From a virus (Duplodnaviria > Caudoviricetes), in IMG/VR virus record IMGVR_UViG_3300020369_000005, positions 1 to 46,522 of that record: 46,522 nt of DNA; one strand, given 5' to 3'. Made by a program: the position numbers and the translations under genes. This document shows, in pieces, positions 5,988 to 22,793 of this stretch. Under the pieces are notes generated by a model. The model had not been told where the DNA came from and did not search any database. It worked only from the letters and a program-made list of their open reading frames with translations. How positions within the stretch are numbered: the stretch's first letter is position 1; each line of letters opens with the position of its first letter.

Positions 5988-6626
5988 TTGGGATTCGTTA
6001 TGACAGAATTAACCACCACAAACACAGTACAAAGCACAGAAAAAAAAGCCGCACGTATGCGCAAAGCCCGCATAAATGCCGGACTATCACAACGTGAAGC
6101 CGCCGCCAAAATGGGGGTTGGGCAATCGCGGGTATCTAATTACGAAAACGAAATAAACAAAAACGTACCGCCCGAGTTTTTAAAACAATGCGCGGCCGTG
6201 TATGGCTGTTCGTTAGAATACTTGTACGGATTTACAGACGAAATTGAGGGCGGTTATGCTTATCGCCCCATAGAAAAAGACAGCCCCATAGCCATTAATA
6301 AAAACACCCTCGCAAGCATGGGGCTGGCCTTGGGCGACCTGCGCGAAATCACCGTAACCGACGGTGCAATGTGTAACGAATTTAACCAAGGCGCGCGGAT
6401 AATTATTAGCAACAAAATTGGCCAAATAAGCAAGCCCGCCATTTATGCGCTAGACCAAGACGGCACCCCCGTAATGCGCGGATTACGTAAAGAGCTTAGC
6501 GGCCAATACACCTTATTTGTGCATAATAAACAAAATTACGACGACCAAACACTCACCGAGGCAGACATAAAAGCCCTGCCAATTATCGGCAAGTATATTG
6601 GCCACTGGCGTACGGCCAGCAATTAA
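5988..6626 (+). CDS. cI: CI-like repressor (XRE HTH plus degenerate S24-like domain)
   Basis: RMRKARINAGLSQREAAAKMGVGQSRVSNYE HTH; C-terminal S24-like fold (TVTDGAM, IYAL, VMRGL, IIGK). Confidence 0.8.
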   Translation: MGFVMTELTTTNTVQSTEKKAARMRKARINAGLSQREAAAKMGVGQSRVSNYENEINKNVPPEFLKQCAAVYGCSLEYLYGFTDEIEGGYAYRPIEKDSPIAINKNTLASMGLALGDLREITVTDGAMCNEFNQGARIIISNKIGQISKPAIYALDQDGTPVMRGLRKELSGQYTLFVHNKQNYDDQTLTEADIKALPIIGKYIGHWRTASN

Positions 6627-10683: not shown

Positions 10684-11316
10684 ATGATCATTGTATTAGC
10701 GCATAACAAAGGCGGGGTGGGCAAAACAACCACCGCGCTAAATTTAACCGAAATATTAAAGCCGGACATCGTAATAGACCAAGACGCGCACAGTAACTTA
10801 GTGACCTTAAATAGCTTTCGCGAGCCAAGCGCGCAATTTAATGTATTAAGTGGCTTAAGCAAACAGGCGCTTATTGAGCAATTAAAACACACCGAGCAAG
10901 GTAAATTAATACTGGTAGATTGTGGCGGGTTCGACTCAGAACTAAACCGCATAGCCGTGGCGTTAAGTGATTTGGTTATAGTGCCAGCCAACGACGACAT
11001 AACCGAAGTGATCGGCCTTAAAAGCTTTGATAAAACACTCAGCGAAATAAGCAAAGAAATGGGCACCCCCATAAATGGCCGCGTATTGTTTACCCGCGTT
11101 CACCCGCGCCGCAAAAAGTTTGACGACGTAGAAAGCTTTTTAAATAACGCTAAGCACTTATCACGTTTAACAACCACCATACCAACGCGTAAAGATTATT
11201 CAAAAGCGGCCCTTGATGGTTTAGGCGTTACCGCCCACCCAAAAACAAAATACAGCGACGCCGCGCGCGACATTAACGCACTGGCCGACGAAGTAAGCGC
11301 GCTATTAAATATTTAA
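10684..11316 (+). CDS. parA: ParA family partition ATPase (type Ib)
   Basis: Deviant Walker A KGGVGKTT, VIDQD, ILVDCGG; 210 aa with no N-terminal HTH. Confidence 0.92.
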   Translation: MIIVLAHNKGGVGKTTTALNLTEILKPDIVIDQDAHSNLVTLNSFREPSAQFNVLSGLSKQALIEQLKHTEQGKLILVDCGGFDSELNRIAVALSDLVIVPANDDITEVIGLKSFDKTLSEISKEMGTPINGRVLFTRVHPRRKKFDDVESFLNNAKHLSRLTTTIPTRKDYSKAALDGLGVTAHPKTKYSDAARDINALADEVSALLNI

Positions 11317-11356
11317 ACCATACTTTATTAATACACATTCAATACAAGGCAAGACC

Positions 11357-11587
11357 ATGAGCAGCAAATTCGACAAAATTAACAACGTAGGTAACGCGGC
11401 CACACTGAGTGAAAAAAACACCGAGCAACACGCCAAGCCAGCCACCAAGCCAAAACACATTAATAATTTGCCCGTAAAGGCAGAGGAACGTTTTAACAGC
11501 TTAAAAGCGGCGGGCAAAGTAAGTGGGAATTTATCGGCTTACATGGTGCAAGCACTACTTGAAAAGTTAGAAAAAGACGAGCGATAA
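11357..11587 (+). CDS. Small partition partner (ParG-like centromere-binding protein)
   Basis: 76 aa directly after parA; flexible N-terminus then an RHH-like segment (NLSAYMVQALLEKLE). Confidence 0.7.
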   Translation: MSSKFDKINNVGNAATLSEKNTEQHAKPATKPKHINNLPVKAEERFNSLKAAGKVSGNLSAYMVQALLEKLEKDER

Positions 11588-11661: not shown

Positions 11662-11802
11662 ATGTCACAAGCAAACTATACAGCAATACAAAAAATGCGT
11701 CTAATTGATTTACACACCCTACCAAGCAACCTGTTATTGCAATGGTTAGCCAGTAAGCCCGCATGGCTGCAAGCGGCGGTTATTGGTCGCCAAGCGCATT
11801 AA
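11662..11802 (+). CDS. Small hypothetical protein (46 aa) behind a hairpin leader
   Basis: MSQANYTAIQKMRLIDLHTLPSNLLLQWLASKPAWLQAAVIGRQAH with AGAGG RBS; stem GCCGGTG...CACCGGC upstream. Confidence 0.45.
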   Translation: MSQANYTAIQKMRLIDLHTLPSNLLLQWLASKPAWLQAAVIGRQAH

Positions 11803-11950
11803 CGCTTTTATTTAGTAATTGGGCGATTTGCACAGCCACCGCGTTAACGTGCTGATCGTCCTCACTGGCGCGGGCCAGTATCACACACAGCGAATGGGCG
11901 GCGCTTAAATCATCTACAACGCTCACTGTTTTATTTATTTTATTTTCCAT
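11780..11950 (-). CDS. Small hypothetical protein (56 aa) divergent from the second CI-like gene
   Basis: MENKINKTVSVVDDLSAAHSLCVILARASEDDQHVNAVAVQIAQLLNKSVNALGDQ with AAGG RBS. Confidence 0.5.
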   Translation of the reverse strand: MENKINKTVSVVDDLSAAHSLCVILARASEDDQHVNAVAVQIAQLLNKSVNALGDQ

Positions 11951-12106
11951 AATTTAACCTTAGATAACTGCATTAATTGCAATGAAAATTACACGGATAT
12001 GACACCCTTTGCAATAAAAACTTACATTTTGTCAGTTTTTATTCAGGCAGGGTATGTAATTATTTACAGGATCGGTTACTATAACGCCAACATAAGAGGC
12101 AGGCCC

Positions 12107-12532
12107 ATGTTTAAAAAAGCACTAACACCCGAGCAGCAAACCGTACACGATATAATAAATCGTGTGTGCTGGGCGCATGGTGTAAAAAATAAAGCAGCCC
12201 TTGAGCGCAAAATAGCGTTAAGTGACTCATGGTGTACCAACACAATTAAACGCGGCTCAACACCGTATGCACTAATAGACCAAACAGCGCAGGCAACCGG
12301 CATAAGTTACGATCACCTACTGTATGGCAGCCCAATGAGCCAACTAGACCCAAACGATTTGTTGTATATAAAGCAAGGTTTAATAAAAAGCTTAAGAGAG
12401 CTAAACGAGCAGGGGTTTATAAATAAAGCGAGCAGCTTAGAAGATTTAGAACAGCTTGCAAAAAAACAAGCCGCCGATATTGAGCACGAACTTACAATAC
12501 AGTGGAACAAAAACACAAAAGAGCGCGCCTAG
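12107..12532 (+). CDS. Second CI-like HTH regulator (186/P2-CI-type N-terminal domain)
   Basis: IINRVCWAHGVKNKAALERKIALSDSWCTNTIKRGSTPY...TGISYDHLLYG. GAGG RBS before the ATG at 12107; the track ORF starts at 11999. Confidence 0.7.
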   Translation: MFKKALTPEQQTVHDIINRVCWAHGVKNKAALERKIALSDSWCTNTIKRGSTPYALIDQTAQATGISYDHLLYGSPMSQLDPNDLLYIKQGLIKSLRELNEQGFINKASSLEDLEQLAKKQAADIEHELTIQWNKNTKERA

Positions 12533-12927
12533 CGCTCTTTGTTAAACTTTGCATAAATTACTTTATGCCCTAAATCATTATCATATTTATTCATTAACTG
12601 CCCTATTGATAATTCCTCAACGGGCGCTTGCACCTCAGCCGGTGTAATTTCTGCAAGCTCAAAATCATAACGGCGCATACTTGGAAACTTACCCAATATT
12701 AATGCCACCTCATTTTTAAGCTTTTCAGCCTCATTCATTAATTGCATTGCTTTATTAAAGTCGGGTTCGTGCTTAGCGTTAATGCTTAATTTAATCGCCA
12801 ATTCGGCCTTATCTCTAATTTGTTTTTTAAATACAGAACGGCGCGCAATAAGCCAGGTACTTAATACAAGTAACGCAAATAACACCAGCGCAGTAAAATA
12901 AACAATATTAATCATGTGCCACCCCAC
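12529..12927 (-). CDS. Single-pass membrane protein with helical soluble domain
   Basis: N-terminal TM (IVYFTALVLFALLVLSTWLIA) followed by RR..KK; overlaps the stop of the upstream gene. Confidence 0.7.
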   Translation of the reverse strand: MGWHMINIVYFTALVLFALLVLSTWLIARRSVFKKQIRDKAELAIKLSINAKHEPDFNKAMQLMNEAEKLKNEVALILGKFPSMRRYDFELAEITPAEVQAPVEELSIGQLMNKYDNDLGHKVIYAKFNKER

Positions 12928-13495
12928 TAAATTGCAAACTCATAAAACGCCCAAAACGGGTAAATAATAAACGCGGGAACACCATTAACACCCCAAGCGC
13001 CACACTAATATAAAGCACAATAAAACTATATGCGTAATGCATAACCGCAAATCCCTCTTGAATATCCAACACCACAAACTTAACCCACACCGCAAAGTGA
13101 GCCAACGCCAACACCAGCGTTAAACGCACAACGGTAAAAAATAACGGGCCATACTTATAACTAAACCGCGTGTGTAACTTATAAAGCACATACACACTTA
13201 ATAAATTAAACCCGCACAACGCCAAGTACACGTTTTGAGCTAAATCGCCGCGCTGGGTGTCGGCTAAAAACATAAGCACATGCTCCATTAATAATGTAGT
13301 TAACATGTATTTAGACCCAACCACCGCAATACATAAAAAATCACTTAATAGTTCAGTGTTTTTTAACGCGCGCACAATCGACAACCCAAACGCCAACACG
13401 TAACACACCGAAATAACCACCTGTAACGAAAATACGTTATGGGCCGCCGTAGCAACCAGTAAATCGTTATAAATATTCGTTAATGTATTTAGCAT
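12908..13495 (-). CDS. Polytopic membrane protein (~6 TM), unknown function
   Basis: 195 aa with five to six hydrophobic segments; AAGGAG RBS at 13501-13506. Confidence 0.8.
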   Translation of the reverse strand: MLNTLTNIYNDLLVATAAHNVFSLQVVISVCYVLAFGLSIVRALKNTELLSDFLCIAVVGSKYMLTTLLMEHVLMFLADTQRGDLAQNVYLALCGFNLLSVYVLYKLHTRFSYKYGPLFFTVVRLTLVLALAHFAVWVKFVVLDIQEGFAVMHYAYSFIVLYISVALGVLMVFPRLLFTRFGRFMSLQFSGVAHD

Positions 13496-13536
13496 GTACG
13501 CTCCTTGTTGGCTATTTATAATATAATTTTAGGCAT

Positions 13537-13565
13537 AAAAAAACCAGCAACTTGCTGGCTTTTTA
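13537..13565. terminator. Intrinsic terminator after the peptide gene
   Basis: A7-CCAGCAA-C-TTGCTGG-C-T5. Confidence 0.7.
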
Positions 13566-13582
13566 AACATTGTTAAGCGCCA

Positions 13583-13759
13583 TTACTTTGGCTTTTTAGG
13601 GTTTAAAATAATAATACCGCCCGAACCCTGTAGTTTTGGTTTAGGTTTTTTAGGGTTTAAAATAATAATACCGGCTGAGCCCTGTAATTGCTGTGTATTT
13701 ACATTGGCTGAGGTAACGTCTGCCGCAAGGCCGCTTAATAGTAATAATGTCGCTGTCAT
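13583..13759 (-). CDS. 58-aa precursor-like peptide with duplicated core LQGS[A/G]GIIILNPKKPK
   Basis: AAGGAG RBS before the ATG at 13759; 54-nt-period duplication with 6 of 7 nucleotide differences synonymous; own terminator. Confidence 0.8.
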   Translation of the reverse strand: MTATLLLLSGLAADVTSANVNTQQLQGSAGIIILNPKKPKPKLQGSGGIIILNPKKPK

Positions 13760-13835
13760 TTTTTTGCTCCTTAAAATAAATTCAAACAGCAACAGCAAAT
13801 ACCACGCCAAGTATTTAAAAGGCGTTAAAGCCACT

Positions 13836-13927
13836 CTTTAGGGTTTACCCTAAAGTTAATTAAATTACCCATAGTAATGCGCCTATAGTTAAACTTTAGC
13901 GATACAAAAATAACCCTAAAGTTTAAC
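13836..13927. promoter_or_regulatory. Putative res site for the serine resolvase
   Basis: Palindrome CTTTAGGGT-TT-ACCCTAAAG 13836-13855 and wider-spaced inverted pair GTTAAACTTTAGcG (13888-13901) / CCCTAAAGTTTAAC (13914-13927), immediately upstream of the recombinase. Confidence 0.7.
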
Positions 13928-13936
13928 GGGCCAAAC

Positions 13937-18433: not shown

Positions 18434-19249
18434 TTAAATATGGCGGCTAGGTTCGGTTAGCGCCGTGATCTGTTTAAACATCATATTGTATTGCTGCAAT
18501 AAACCCAATAGGCCGTCTAGGTCTTTAGCGGCGGTACGCACATTATTAACCAGCACCGGTTTATTTTGTTGCTCGGCCTGCATAAGTTGGTTAAGTAACG
18601 CGGCCATTGGGGTTGGCAATAAGGTATCGCCATAATTAAACGCGCTTACTTGCGTTGATTTTATTATGCCCGATTTAGGTAAATCAATAATTACCGCATC
18701 GTATTGCGGGGCAGCTAACTTAAACTGATCAACAATCGCTAACGCCTGGTTAAATAAGTGGGCGGGTATTTGCTCGTACTTGGTCACGTTAAAGTGGCTT
18801 TTTAATTTATTGTATAGCGTGTTGTATAAACTTTGGTGCAGTTCGCGCGGTTGGCTGTTTACCAGTGTGCTAATTTTGGTTTGTATTTGGCGTTGTTGGC
18901 CGTGAGTTAATGTACCGTATTGTAATTCGCTTAACTTATCGGCCATGGCATTAAATGCGTTTATGTATGCCTCTTTTATCTGCGCCGCTTTTTTTCCAGT
19001 AAAGCCCATAACCAAAAACATAAAGCCGTCTTTACTCATTTCATAAGTATCATACACGTTGCCACGGTGGTTATATTTAACCGCGCAAAAGTTCGCGGTT
19101 AAAAAACTGGCTGAGCATTCAAGTAAATTTATTTTTTTTATAATGTCTCGGTGACGTTTAGAAAAAGCCTCGGCGACTTTAAATGTGTTAGTTACTAGCT
19201 TTGTTTCTGTTGATGTAATTGCATTGATTGGTAGTGTTTGAATAGTCAT
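18434..19249 (-). CDS. rha: Rha family phage regulatory / antirepressor-like protein
   Basis: T.T..VAEAF.KRH.DI...I...NF...Y.MSKDGF.FLVMGFTGKKAAQ.KEAYI.AFN.M, followed by an ORF6C/antirepressor-C-like region. Confidence 0.9.
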   Translation of the reverse strand: MTIQTLPINAITSTETKLVTNTFKVAEAFSKRHRDIIKKINLLECSASFLTANFCAVKYNHRGNVYDTYEMSKDGFMFLVMGFTGKKAAQIKEAYINAFNAMADKLSELQYGTLTHGQQRQIQTKISTLVNSQPRELHQSLYNTLYNKLKSHFNVTKYEQIPAHLFNQALAIVDQFKLAAPQYDAVIIDLPKSGIIKSTQVSAFNYGDTLLPTPMAALLNQLMQAEQQNKPVLVNNVRTAAKDLDGLLGLLQQYNMMFKQITALTEPSRHI

Positions 19250-20189: not shown

Positions 20190-20900
20190 ATGACTAAAAT
20201 TAAAACAAAAAAAGATAATAATCAGCTTATTGTACAATCTAACGAAGTAACCGAGGCCGCCTATCACTTATCAATAAAAGGTAAGCGCGTTTTATGGCTG
20301 TGCTTGGCGCAAGCATACCAAAGCGATAGCGCAAAAGAGGGCGTGTTTTTTATTAGTGTACACGATTATCAGCATTATTTTGAAGTGGGCAAGGTTACGG
20401 CGTCAAAAGACGTTAAATTAGGCGTAGACGAGCTGCTGCGCAACTATGTCTCTTTTTACCCTACTACGGGGGATTATGAGGAAATATCGCGCCCTTGGCT
20501 CTTGGAGCAAGCCCGCAAAGTTGAAAGGGGCGTGTTTAAGATTGAGTTTAACCCCCGTTTAGTGCCTTATGTAACGGGCCTATCTGAAAAGTTTACGCAA
20601 TTTTATTTGCAGCACTGCGGCAAATTAAATAACTCGCGCACCATTAGACTTTATGAAAGCTTATGCCAATGGCGTAACACTGGCGTTTGGCGTGTTGATA
20701 TTGCTTGGCTTATAGAACGTTACGATCTGCCAGCAACGCAAGCGGCCAATTATGCCGAGCTTAAGCGTAAATTTTTAATACCGGCCGTCGCGCGGATCAA
20801 TGATAAAACCCCGATTAATGTGACATTTAAAGAAATTACAGGGGGTGGTAATAAAGTAACCGCTATATTATTTAACATGACAGATAGCGCAGCAAATTAA
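20190..20900 (+). CDS. repB: Plasmid replication initiator, Rep_3 (RepB/RepE-like) family
   Basis: IVQSNE..EA.Y.LS, F.P.L.PY...L...FT, TIRLYESLCQWR, Y.ELKR.FL.PAV..IN motifs; flanked by iterons. Confidence 0.92.
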   Translation: MTKIKTKKDNNQLIVQSNEVTEAAYHLSIKGKRVLWLCLAQAYQSDSAKEGVFFISVHDYQHYFEVGKVTASKDVKLGVDELLRNYVSFYPTTGDYEEISRPWLLEQARKVERGVFKIEFNPRLVPYVTGLSEKFTQFYLQHCGKLNNSRTIRLYESLCQWRNTGVWRVDIAWLIERYDLPATQAANYAELKRKFLIPAVARINDKTPINVTFKEITGGGNKVTAILFNMTDSAAN

Positions 20901-21854: not shown

Positions 21855-22793
21855 TTAGTGCGGTGGGGCGCTGGGCTCGTACTGCGCAATGGCGCGTAAT
21901 TGGGCGAGCTCTTGATTTACTAGGCCTTTAAAAACGTCAAGACTCATTAAGCTGGCGGCGGCACCTAAGCGGCTTAATACACGCTGCTGTGCAATGTGGC
22001 GTTGTTGTTCGGGGGTTTTGGGATTAATGGCGCGTTTAACTTTTGTTATAGCGCGTTTTTCTTTTATGCGATCAAACACTTTGCGGTAATGCGCCAGGCG
22101 TTGGCGTTCTTTAATTTCGGCCACGCTCATAACGCCTAGCTGCTCGGGCGTTAATCCGTTTTTTATGCCTTGTTTGCGTAAGTATTTTAAACGTGCATCA
22201 CGTTGGCGGGCTACGCGTTCTTGGGTAATACCCAGTGCTTTAAAAAATAGCTCGGTTACTTCAAAGTATTTATCAACCCATTGGCCCGCGTGTTTATCCC
22301 ACACTTGCCACTCTTTATGGGCCACGATCCACCCGAGATCGACCATATCTTTAAACGCACGGCTCGCGCGGCTAATACTCGGTTTAGGGGCGTAGCTTTT
22401 ATCAAGCTTGGCTTTGTTAAGCTCGGTTTGGCTTATGGTGCTTAGCCCGCAAACATCGGCGGCATTACGCAGGCTTATTTGTACTTGGTGAGTAACTACG
22501 TTTACATGCTCACAAAATACGGTTGCCAATGCGCGCATGGCTTTTTCGCGGTCGGGGTAATACACTTTTTTGCGGTTAGTGGTGGGGCGCATATAAACGG
22601 CGGCGTCTGATTTAACGATGTTTATTTTTTGCGACTTTTCGACCAAGTCGCGCACAAACGCTAAACGCTTGGTGTGGGTTTTGGGTACGGTATAGGCAGG
22701 GTTCGCGTTTTTAACGCGGTTGCAATGGGTTAATGATGTGTTGTTATTATCTGTTTGCATTTGGGTCACTTGTTTTTTATACGCTTTGGGCAT
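21855..22793 (-). CDS. repA: Second replication initiator, IncFII RepA-like
   Basis: NPAY..P, R..A..AL...F..H.N..T..V, A...GLST, SISRASRA...M...G, WD...G.W..K...VT.LFF..LG motifs. Confidence 0.78.
   Translation of the reverse strand: MPKAYKKQVTQMQTDNNNTSLTHCNRVKNANPAYTVPKTHTKRLAFVRDLVEKSQKINIVKSDAAVYMRPTTNRKKVYYPDREKAMRALATVFCEHVNVVTHQVQISLRNAADVCGLSTISQTELNKAKLDKSYAPKPSISRASRAFKDMVDLGWIVAHKEWQVWDKHAGQWVDKYFEVTELFFKALGITQERVARQRDARLKYLRKQGIKNGLTPEQLGVMSVAEIKERQRLAHYRKVFDRIKEKRAITKVKRAINPKTPEQQRHIAQQRVLSRLGAAASLMSLDVFKGLVNQELAQLRAIAQYEPSAPPH

Follow-up and report, generated by a model that had tools for sequence, protein, structure and literature searches.

The window analysed here is the whole of a 46,522-nt stretch (positions 1 to 46,522 of IMG/VR record IMGVR_UViG_3300020369_000005) from a tailed temperate phage, in which family scans recognised ParA, a Rep3 initiator, a second RepA-like gene, a tyrosine recombinase, a resolvase and a CI-like repressor, and which, judged by its gene content, reads as a circular phage-plasmid of the Rep3 type. 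Behind its par genes lies a compact block (Table 1) in which an initial annotation had seen a candidate peptide-signalling cassette, composed of a small peptide gene, a 195-aa polytopic membrane protein, an overlapping single-pass membrane protein and a convergent helix-turn-helix (HTH) regulator, followed by two mini open reading frames (ORFs). All six ORFs were found at the positions assigned to them, with ribosome-binding sites, and the block is real. The 195-aa gene and the single-pass gene share 8 nt, the start of the latter being corrected to 12915 with translational coupling to the gene before it, and the HTH gene converges on the single-pass gene with a 4-nt overlap. Both mini-ORFs are present, but only one goes with the cassette: homologues of the 46-aa ORF follow parAB in three Vibrio phage-plasmids that have no cassette, and this ORF was therefore assigned to the par operon and not to the signalling unit.

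Table 1. Features of the cassette, its regulatory sites and the neighbouring genes in the window.
Feature	Position	Strand	Basis or remark
58-aa precursor gene	13583..13759	-	ORF list, homologues, core pN/pS
195-aa five-helix membrane protein, predicted peptide receptor	12908..13495	-	Model, topology, co-variation
128-aa single-pass protein with cytoplasmic helical region, predicted relay	12529..12915	-	Start by homologue alignment
141-aa transcription factor (HTH protein), predicted smORF activator	12107..12532	+	PF07022; start by homologue alignment
56-aa smORF, predicted antirepressor, divergent from the HTH gene	11780..11950	-	Conservation, pN/pS
Sigma-54-type -24/-12 box TGGC-N7-TTGCT, upstream of the peptide gene	13794..13809	-	24/25 upstream regions
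Intrinsic-terminator-like hairpin between peptide and receptor genes	13538..13564	-	Fold -13.8 kcal/mol
Dyad operator AAAACTWACA-N3-TGTWAGTTTT, midway between smORF and HTH starts	12017..12039	.	Motif scan
Main CI-like repressor, S24-like domain without catalytic Ser and Lys, predicted smORF target	5988..6626	+	Family scans, motif inspection
parA and small partner gene	10684..11587	+	Context; defines the par-linked TF-smORF slot
46-aa ORF closing the par operon	11662..11802	+	phrog_22022 match; landmark outside the signalling unit

The four-gene cassette is conserved and lies outside known families. Our close-family survey covered 64 loci, a redundant set that includes the window and an identical record, with the distant loci L042-L050 and L053-L056 handled apart. 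The two-core peptide gene was present in all 59 loci having at least 330 nt of upstream sequence, so that homologues of the membrane protein were always accompanied by an adjacent peptide gene. The single-pass and HTH genes were both detected in 59 of the 61 loci having at least 1 kb downstream by a script that accepted only ATG starts; of its two misses, L088 has a GTG start and the HTH gene of L093 was recovered by tblastn. The expected co-occurrence of a short Gly-core ORF with an HTH gene was thus borne out, and the presence of the peptide gene in 59/59 loci, together with a ratio of nonsynonymous to synonymous polymorphism (pN/pS) of 0.22 and 0.23 for the two cores over 23 alleles (uncorrected proportions), argues that the cassette is not a chance arrangement. 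A locus discovered later (L144) has a new peptide allele and carries both the sigma-54-type box and the operator. The cassette is not specific to phages, as had been supposed, since the close family also occurs on integrase-bearing elements (L015, L016) and at one Pseudoalteromonas chromosomal site, whose neighbours we take to be exonuclease I and an SbtA-like transporter. Scans of PHROGs, Pfam, NCBIfam and PADLOC gave no family for the 195-aa protein, the single-pass protein, the peptide or the small ORF divergent from the HTH gene (smORF), and the sub-cutoff NCBIfam rows, namely PatX for the window peptide (E 0.081) and PspB (E 0.35), were not relied on.

The 195-aa protein had been described as a six-helix protein comparable to Agr modules. 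The AlphaFold model (predicted local distance difference test score of 88) has five helices instead, at residues 24-44, 50-80, 89-111, 117-142 and 150-172. Hydropathy and Lys/Arg bias, with loops 1 and 3 and the C-tail basic and the N-terminus, loop 2 and loop 4 acidic, argue for an N-out/C-in topology, and the N-terminus and the loop at residues 75-89 are predicted to be periplasmic and allele-specific. The Agr analogy is also unsupported for want of an invariant catalytic residue: His108 and Tyr156 are near-invariant across the wider family-A alignment, and an alignment of 35 superfamily proteins has no invariant column and no invariant His or Cys, Tyr156 alone exceeding 90%. None of these 35 members matched the Pfam AgrB family, and neither Pfam nor PDB gave a connection to AgrB or to any peptidase. 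A PDB sequence search returned rows at E>0.05 only, Foldseek found no match at E<=0.001 for the model of the 195-aa protein among PDB and viral models, the best VIA Z was 9.3, to generic bundles, and viral models of 146-178 aa reached a TM score of ~0.5 at E>0.3. Searches with the 195-aa protein by tblastn against annotated phages and plasmids gave no match. The label MreD, which one automatically named ESM Atlas cluster carries without Pfam support while the other Atlas clusters are unnamed, was rejected.

The precursor has a short hydrophobic leader and two Gly-rich cores of the form G-S-(A/G)-G-I-I-I-L-N-P (GSAGIIILNP and GSGGIIILNP), each preceded by LQ and followed by a Lys-rich spacer. 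Across the close family the cores follow the pattern [GN][ST][AG]GI[IV]I with variable tails (LNP, KDP, KE/RE, KRP, LVP, MPP/LPP and RK). Canonical Sec-like leaders are restricted to the relatives L043 and L053; the NCBIfam scan gave no double-glycine leader for the window peptide, and no exporter was found in the window or the flanks. The gene has its own ribosome-binding site and terminator, as initially annotated, with AAGGAG 6 nt before the ATG and a hairpin with a U-run after the gene; a hairpin and T-run were also seen in the 18 peptide-receptor spacers inspected. Upstream, the box TGGC-N7-TTGCT, which we take to match the sigma-54 consensus, occurs in 24 of the 25 distinct family-A regions, 49-63 nt ahead of the peptide start, with a shuffle rate of 0.00026 for a pattern that was set after some of these regions had been viewed. 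Sigma-70 sites, by contrast, were not in excess in a scan for them. Conserved repeats, including the palindrome CTTTAGGGTAAACCCTAAAG, occupy window 13830-13930, which separates the peptide promoter from the resolvase gene; they likely form a res site and are positioned where a sigma-54 enhancer would be expected.

Co-variation of the peptide with the membrane protein, which the initial annotation had put forward as a check, was found in 35 non-redundant cassettes, in trees and in DNA comparisons. Peptide type was unrelated to the single-pass/HTH background (rho -0.01), while residues 1-23 and 75-89 of the five-helix protein track the peptide (partial r 0.44 and 0.52; 0/500 permutations, permutation and shuffle tests being inflated by near-copies), and TM1-TM3, loop 3 and the tail gave a weaker signal (0.25-0.37). 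No such relation holds for cytoplasmic loop 1 (partial r -0.03), and residues 139-195 track the genomic background (0.44-0.62). Consistently, the seven peptide types require 7 changes on the tree of residues 1-105, where the minimum is 6, against 13 on that of residues 139-195. The swapped DNA block runs from the peptide core to about codon 135 of the receptor gene, and the leader and upstream DNA go with the background and not with the receptor (r 0.79 and 0.78). In the phage/chromosome pair L092/L104, which share a peptide, 93% of residues but only 35% of codons are identical in the second 15-codon window, so that the match between receptors with the same core is not due to recent hitch-hiking; the same-peptide pair L003/L090 shares 86% of residues in the N-terminal segment at a synonymous level of 46%, which is saturated. 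Pairs with the same background and different peptides share 40-80% in that segment, five of the seven at most 60%. Moreover, receptors paired with Asn-led LNP cores branch apart from those paired with Gly-led ones (support 100/100), which suggests that the mature peptide may begin at the leading Gly or Asn of the core. From these sequence comparisons an allele-specific interaction between the peptide and the five-helix protein appears very probable. Chromosomal and phage copies share cores, so that peptide cross-talk between host and phage is possible; in two strains (L003/L011 and L006/L010) the chromosomal and phage-plasmid alleles differ.

The N-terminus of the HTH protein resembles phage 186 CI, as indicated by the PF07022 match and a profile match to 2FJR (E 1.7e-4), and its helical C-terminal domain belongs to no known family by model and fold search. 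The dyad operator has a single match in the whole window, where 0.02 would be expected, and was present in 10/10 mobile and 0/20 chromosomal cassette copies, the context being assigned from the single-pass N-terminus. Chromosomal copies have lost the Arg of the HTH helix, which stays basic in mobile operator-bearing copies, and yet their single-pass protein and HTH C-domain are under strong purifying selection (pN/pS 0.11-0.21, 15 alleles). A conserved TTGCAA -35-like hexamer adjoins the dyad on the smORF side of the alignment, an arrangement that would fit the HTH protein as an activator of the smORF. The protein had been read as a second repressor; activation of the divergent 56-aa ORF is the more likely role.

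Two further observations concern these genes. The chromosomal site of L002-L009 and L027-L039, where the HTH basic residue and the operator are lost, holds at least six peptide alleles. On the integrative elements (L015:3197-4248 and L016:3549-4610) a second, remote-family cassette, with an acidic Gly-rich peptide, a 182-aa membrane protein and a 114-aa single-pass protein, is divergent from a family-A HTH gene and lies behind the same operator and a perfect box that we take to be of LexA type, upstream of a P2-type repressor. Two peptide circuits stand there in series, possibly under SOS gating.

The smORF (171 nt, 156 nt from the HTH gene and beside parAB) is kept in 13 other phage-plasmid loci with a pN/pS of 0.51. 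Six loci have an HTH protein 98-100% identical to the window's; their smORF is only 64-73% identical, and the main CI repressor in such loci is 78% (L012, full length) or 79% (L017, 53 residues) identical; the smORF thus diverges like CI, while its neighbours stay at least 98% identical. A resemblance of the smORF to single-pass partners, noticed by eye only, was dropped. The main CI, as the initial annotation suggested, looks non-cleavable by its sequence: VTDGAM and VMRGL stand at what we take to be the positions of the GDSM and Lys autocleavage motifs, a loss shared by L010 and L012, and with both catalytic residues absent the repressor would need an antirepressor. A Rha-like/antirepressor gene at 18434-19249 is, by its sequence, another candidate for that role. 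In the accessible part of a study of transcription factor-smORF (TF-smORF) modules, par-linked transcription factors activate a divergent ORF of 156-183 nt about 150 nt away, whose product inactivates CI (10.1101/2022.09.16.508337), and the natural cues of such modules are described by their authors as an open question in the accessible part of PMC10432266. The window, itself a plasmid-like phage, likewise has a transcription factor and a small ORF in divergent orientation close to par. The same par slot in the three Vibrio phage-plasmids, the circular K257, E110 p1 and PhiPS02, is occupied by a different, unannotated XRE/smORF pair (L139:5987-6660, L140:4517-5195 and L141:5487-6163), which is a candidate TF-smORF module without a visible input. 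No Pseudoalteromonas match was found in 12 of the 22 supplements of PMC10432266.

Remote relatives were sought with profiles. A search over 1.8 billion representatives gave only 20 matches, and a joint superfamily profile was built from these and the second cassette of L015/L016. The joint profile matched 75/401 family-level and 11/401 order-level genomes, and a narrower one 24/140 genomes of the genus, with up to eight matches reported per genome in the joint family-level survey. First profile comparisons of families A and B were not significant, and a deeper profile aligned 131 columns at E 0.0075; the two families would be homologous mainly by the joint profile and the shared gene context. 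By a loose rule, a short Gly-rich ORF was found in 46 of 59 clusters with upstream DNA (three of these rows being family-A repeats), compared with 82 of 421 control ORFs. Three leader classes were distinguished by eye (hydrophobic Sec-like, double-glycine and FlgM-like); the double-glycine model TIGR01847 was above cutoff in one of eight tested leaders and below it in one more, and FlgM matches, all sub-cutoff, occurred in four of seven. Leader class changes 12 times on the tree of 59 superfamily proteins. An exporter or leader peptidase would be expected to track the leader; here the leader tracks the background and changes class while the protein stays with the core, which makes the 195-aa family more likely a receptor than an exporter.

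The superfamily loci are diverse. At an argH-adjacent site (L048, L050, L066, L069, L070, L072, L073, L079-L081, L127 and L137), where the chromosomal gene before the arrays is presumably argH-like, one RGGG-core peptide precedes one to four tandem receptor paralogues, with a double-glycine leader in some species and a FlgM-like one in others. Precursors in L071, L074, L084, L086 and L120 combine a FlgM-like N-terminus with up to six GNG..EPP core repeats and suggest that, in keeping with the known export of FlgM, they may leave through the flagellar apparatus. Minimal precursors of 19-23 aa with nearly no leader stand ahead of a receptor homologue in L116, L118 and L119, which have no single-pass partner. 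In L046, L047 and L054-L056 the homologue has no peptide gene and a small single-pass ORF ahead of it (with a convergent HTH gene in L054 and L055), so that eavesdropping receptors are possible. The convergent HTH gene of the chromosomal cassettes L076, L077 and L082 is a P2-type prophage repressor homologue, and L025 has a duplicate of its own repressor next to the cassette.

Taken together, these results are best explained, with a probability of about 0.55, by a peptide communication circuit with a lysis output. In such a circuit, sigma-54-dependent transcription would yield a precursor that is exported, presumably by a Sec-like route, and cut after LQ to a short Gly-led peptide; on binding of the peptide to its outer, periplasmic face, the five-helix receptor would pass the signal to the coupled single-pass partner, which would hold or release the HTH protein at the membrane; the HTH activator would then turn on the divergent smORF, and the smORF product would bind and inactivate CI, leading to lysis. 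That the interaction between the peptide and the five-helix protein serves signalling is probable in itself, and the full chain through to lysis has about an even chance; the chain draws on sequence analysis and a predicted five-helix model, with export, binding and relay inferred. By analogy with arbitrium we lean modestly towards a sign in which peptide accumulation would keep the activator off and hold the plasmid state. The cassette thus likely allows phages to detect each other and to time their lysis accordingly, and the interpretation of the initial annotation is partly supported.

Several observations weigh against this explanation. The window leader has a short hydrophobic stretch without a basic n-region, and the window encodes neither an exporter nor a protease. 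The peptide gene adjoins the 5' end of the receptor gene and the two are exchanged as one block, so that linkage accounts for part of the co-variation; partial r with the peptide is also 0.25-0.27 in cytoplasmic loop 3 and the C-tail, and the single-pass/HTH correlation (rho 0.85) merely reflects shared background. Chromosomal copies have neither smORF nor operator, and their output is unaccounted for by the model. The comparison of CI with the smORF is based on one full and one partial CI, and the similarity of the smORF to the Vibrio smORFs is not significant (E 0.13). As to generality, 13 of 59 superfamily clusters have no peptide candidate, the single-pass partner is found in only 30 of 58 clusters outside the close family, about 11 of the 61 clusters outside family A show, by eye, an HTH gene in convergent orientation, and receptor arrays and peptide-less loci also occur. 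Allele matching, finally, is what one would expect just as much from a toxin and its immunity protein, or from a precursor and its maturase.

This last point bears on the rival explanations. The cassette may encode a microcin-like toxin peptide and an allele-specific five-helix immunity protein, serving kin discrimination or plasmid maintenance; besides the matching of alleles, the double-glycine leaders of relatives (TIGR01847 above cutoff in 1/8) would suit such a pair, and arrays of 2-4 tandem paralogues and peptide-less copies resemble orphan immunity arrays. However, cores of about 10 residues in up to six repeats, and, in some cases, whole precursors of 19-23 aa, are shorter than the known unmodified microcins, there is no linked modifying enzyme or exporter, PADLOC had no match for 10 proteins, and the single-pass gene, the HTH gene and the operator would be left unexplained, which makes this account rather unlikely. 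An AgrB-like maturase or exporter, with the receptor elsewhere, is improbable. Gene adjacency and the near-invariant His108 and Tyr156 of family A would accord with it, as would the fact that AgrB has a size near 195 aa and co-varies with AgrD; yet the superfamily alignment retains only Tyr156 above 90%, there is no Pfam or PDB link to AgrB or a peptidase, and specificity maps to the predicted periplasmic segments and the core, while the leader follows the background and repeatedly changes class.

A different objection accepts the signalling and places its output elsewhere, the single-pass protein acting on a target in the host or its envelope (for instance in superinfection exclusion or on a host regulon) with the HTH gene and smORF as mere neighbours. 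Many superfamily clusters do lack an HTH gene and several a single-pass gene, and in 20 chromosomal copies, which have neither operator nor smORF, the single-pass protein and the HTH C-domain remain under strong purifying selection. Against this, the HTH gene accompanies the cassette on phage-plasmids, integrative elements and chromosomes, the P2-type repressor homologue is kept with the chromosomal cassette in another branch (L076, L077 and L082), and every viral contig retrieved by the HTH or smORF profile carries the cassette. We consider an output elsewhere unlikely, though the least so of these three alternatives.

A communication circuit ending in lysis would work like arbitrium joined to a TF-smORF switch, yet the cassette does not belong to arbitrium or to Agr, and its agreement with the TF-smORF layout is confined to the output half. 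As in Agr and ComCDE, the peptide co-varies with the N-terminal sensor region, a hypervariable block of peptide and sensor part is exchanged as a unit, and some relatives have double-glycine leaders; unlike them, the cassette has no response regulator, AgrB or ABC exporter, and its receptor has five helices and no cytoplasmic domain. Neither a histidine kinase nor a response regulator turned up among the scanned ORFs of the window or in the DNA flanking the close-family cassettes. Class II microcin/immunity pairs also place a small precursor beside a small membrane protein, with a double-glycine leader as in one branch here, but differ from the very short tandem cores, three leader types, absence of an exporter and linked relay and regulator of the cassette family. 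PatS/PatX of heterocystous cyanobacteria are short Gly-containing peptide signals in a Gram-negative lineage (the PatX model scoring below cutoff, as noted above); the window peptide has no RGSGR-type motif and its predicted target is a membrane protein and not HetR. To our knowledge, phage peptide communication has so far been shown only in Firmicutes or other Gram-positive phages.

With arbitrium (AimP/AimR/AimX/AimC), as described in the accessible part of 10.1101/2025.11.23.689978, the cassette shares a phage-encoded allelic peptide and a predicted route via a small antirepressor to the repressor; it differs in its Gram-negative host, in a receptor with five membrane helices in place of a cytoplasmic TPR protein, without sequence relation, in implying no peptide import, and in having two extra relay components. 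Family scans found no TPR family in the cassette, where the neighbour of the peptide gene is the five-helix membrane protein. The TF-smORF modules (VP882 vqmA-qtip, tf63-smORF63 and xre/luxR-smORF), so far as they are described in the accessible parts of 10.1101/2022.09.16.508337 and PMC10432266, likewise have a par-adjacent transcription factor divergent from an ORF of 150-190 nt about 150 nt apart on a plasmid-like phage. Unlike them, the cassette resides on a circular Rep3-type phage-plasmid with a non-cleavable CI, its transcription factor joins a 186-CI-like HTH to a new C-terminal domain, and its predicted input is a peptide of its own making, sensed at the membrane, in place of a host autoinducer, activation and antirepression likewise being predicted. 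No description of the cassette or of a Proteobacteria counterpart was found in the literature searched, core motifs included, with most subscription papers outside the scope.

The host genus is inferred to be the marine Pseudoalteromonas, because the named relatives of the 195-aa protein are all from this genus except one unclassified Pseudomonadota record (52 matches among 591 candidates) and because the gene order of the cassette recurs on 49-62-kb Pseudoalteromonas contigs. In metatranscriptome contigs of a related phage the cassette region was covered in three of four runs and the HTH gene only in the fourth; such contigs cannot show transcription and may be DNA. Elsewhere in the window, the two replication-initiator-like genes at 20190-20900 (Rep3) and 21855-22793 (IncFII RepA-like) face each other, and the tyrosine recombinase and resolvase are located apart from them.

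The cassette gives TF-smORF modules a specific candidate cue, a receptor of no known family and natural allele pairs, and synthetic peptides of 10 residues would allow a test of the idea in Pseudoalteromonas strains that can be cultured. More broadly, and tentatively, since we rate this wider proposal at somewhat less than even odds, the loci may represent a kinase-free family of peptide quorum sensing in Gram-negative marine bacteria and their mobile elements, with a new five-helix receptor, Gly-led peptides released by any of three export routes (Sec-like, double-glycine and flagellar-type), a tethered partner and an HTH protein. Pseudoalteromonas phage-plasmids would have connected it to an antirepressor, giving a Gram-negative analogue of arbitrium, and hosts with matching alleles and a regulator dead for DNA binding could eavesdrop on or jam the signal. 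The presence of the receptor family in 75 of 401 host-family genomes indicates that this may be an overlooked bacterial signalling system.

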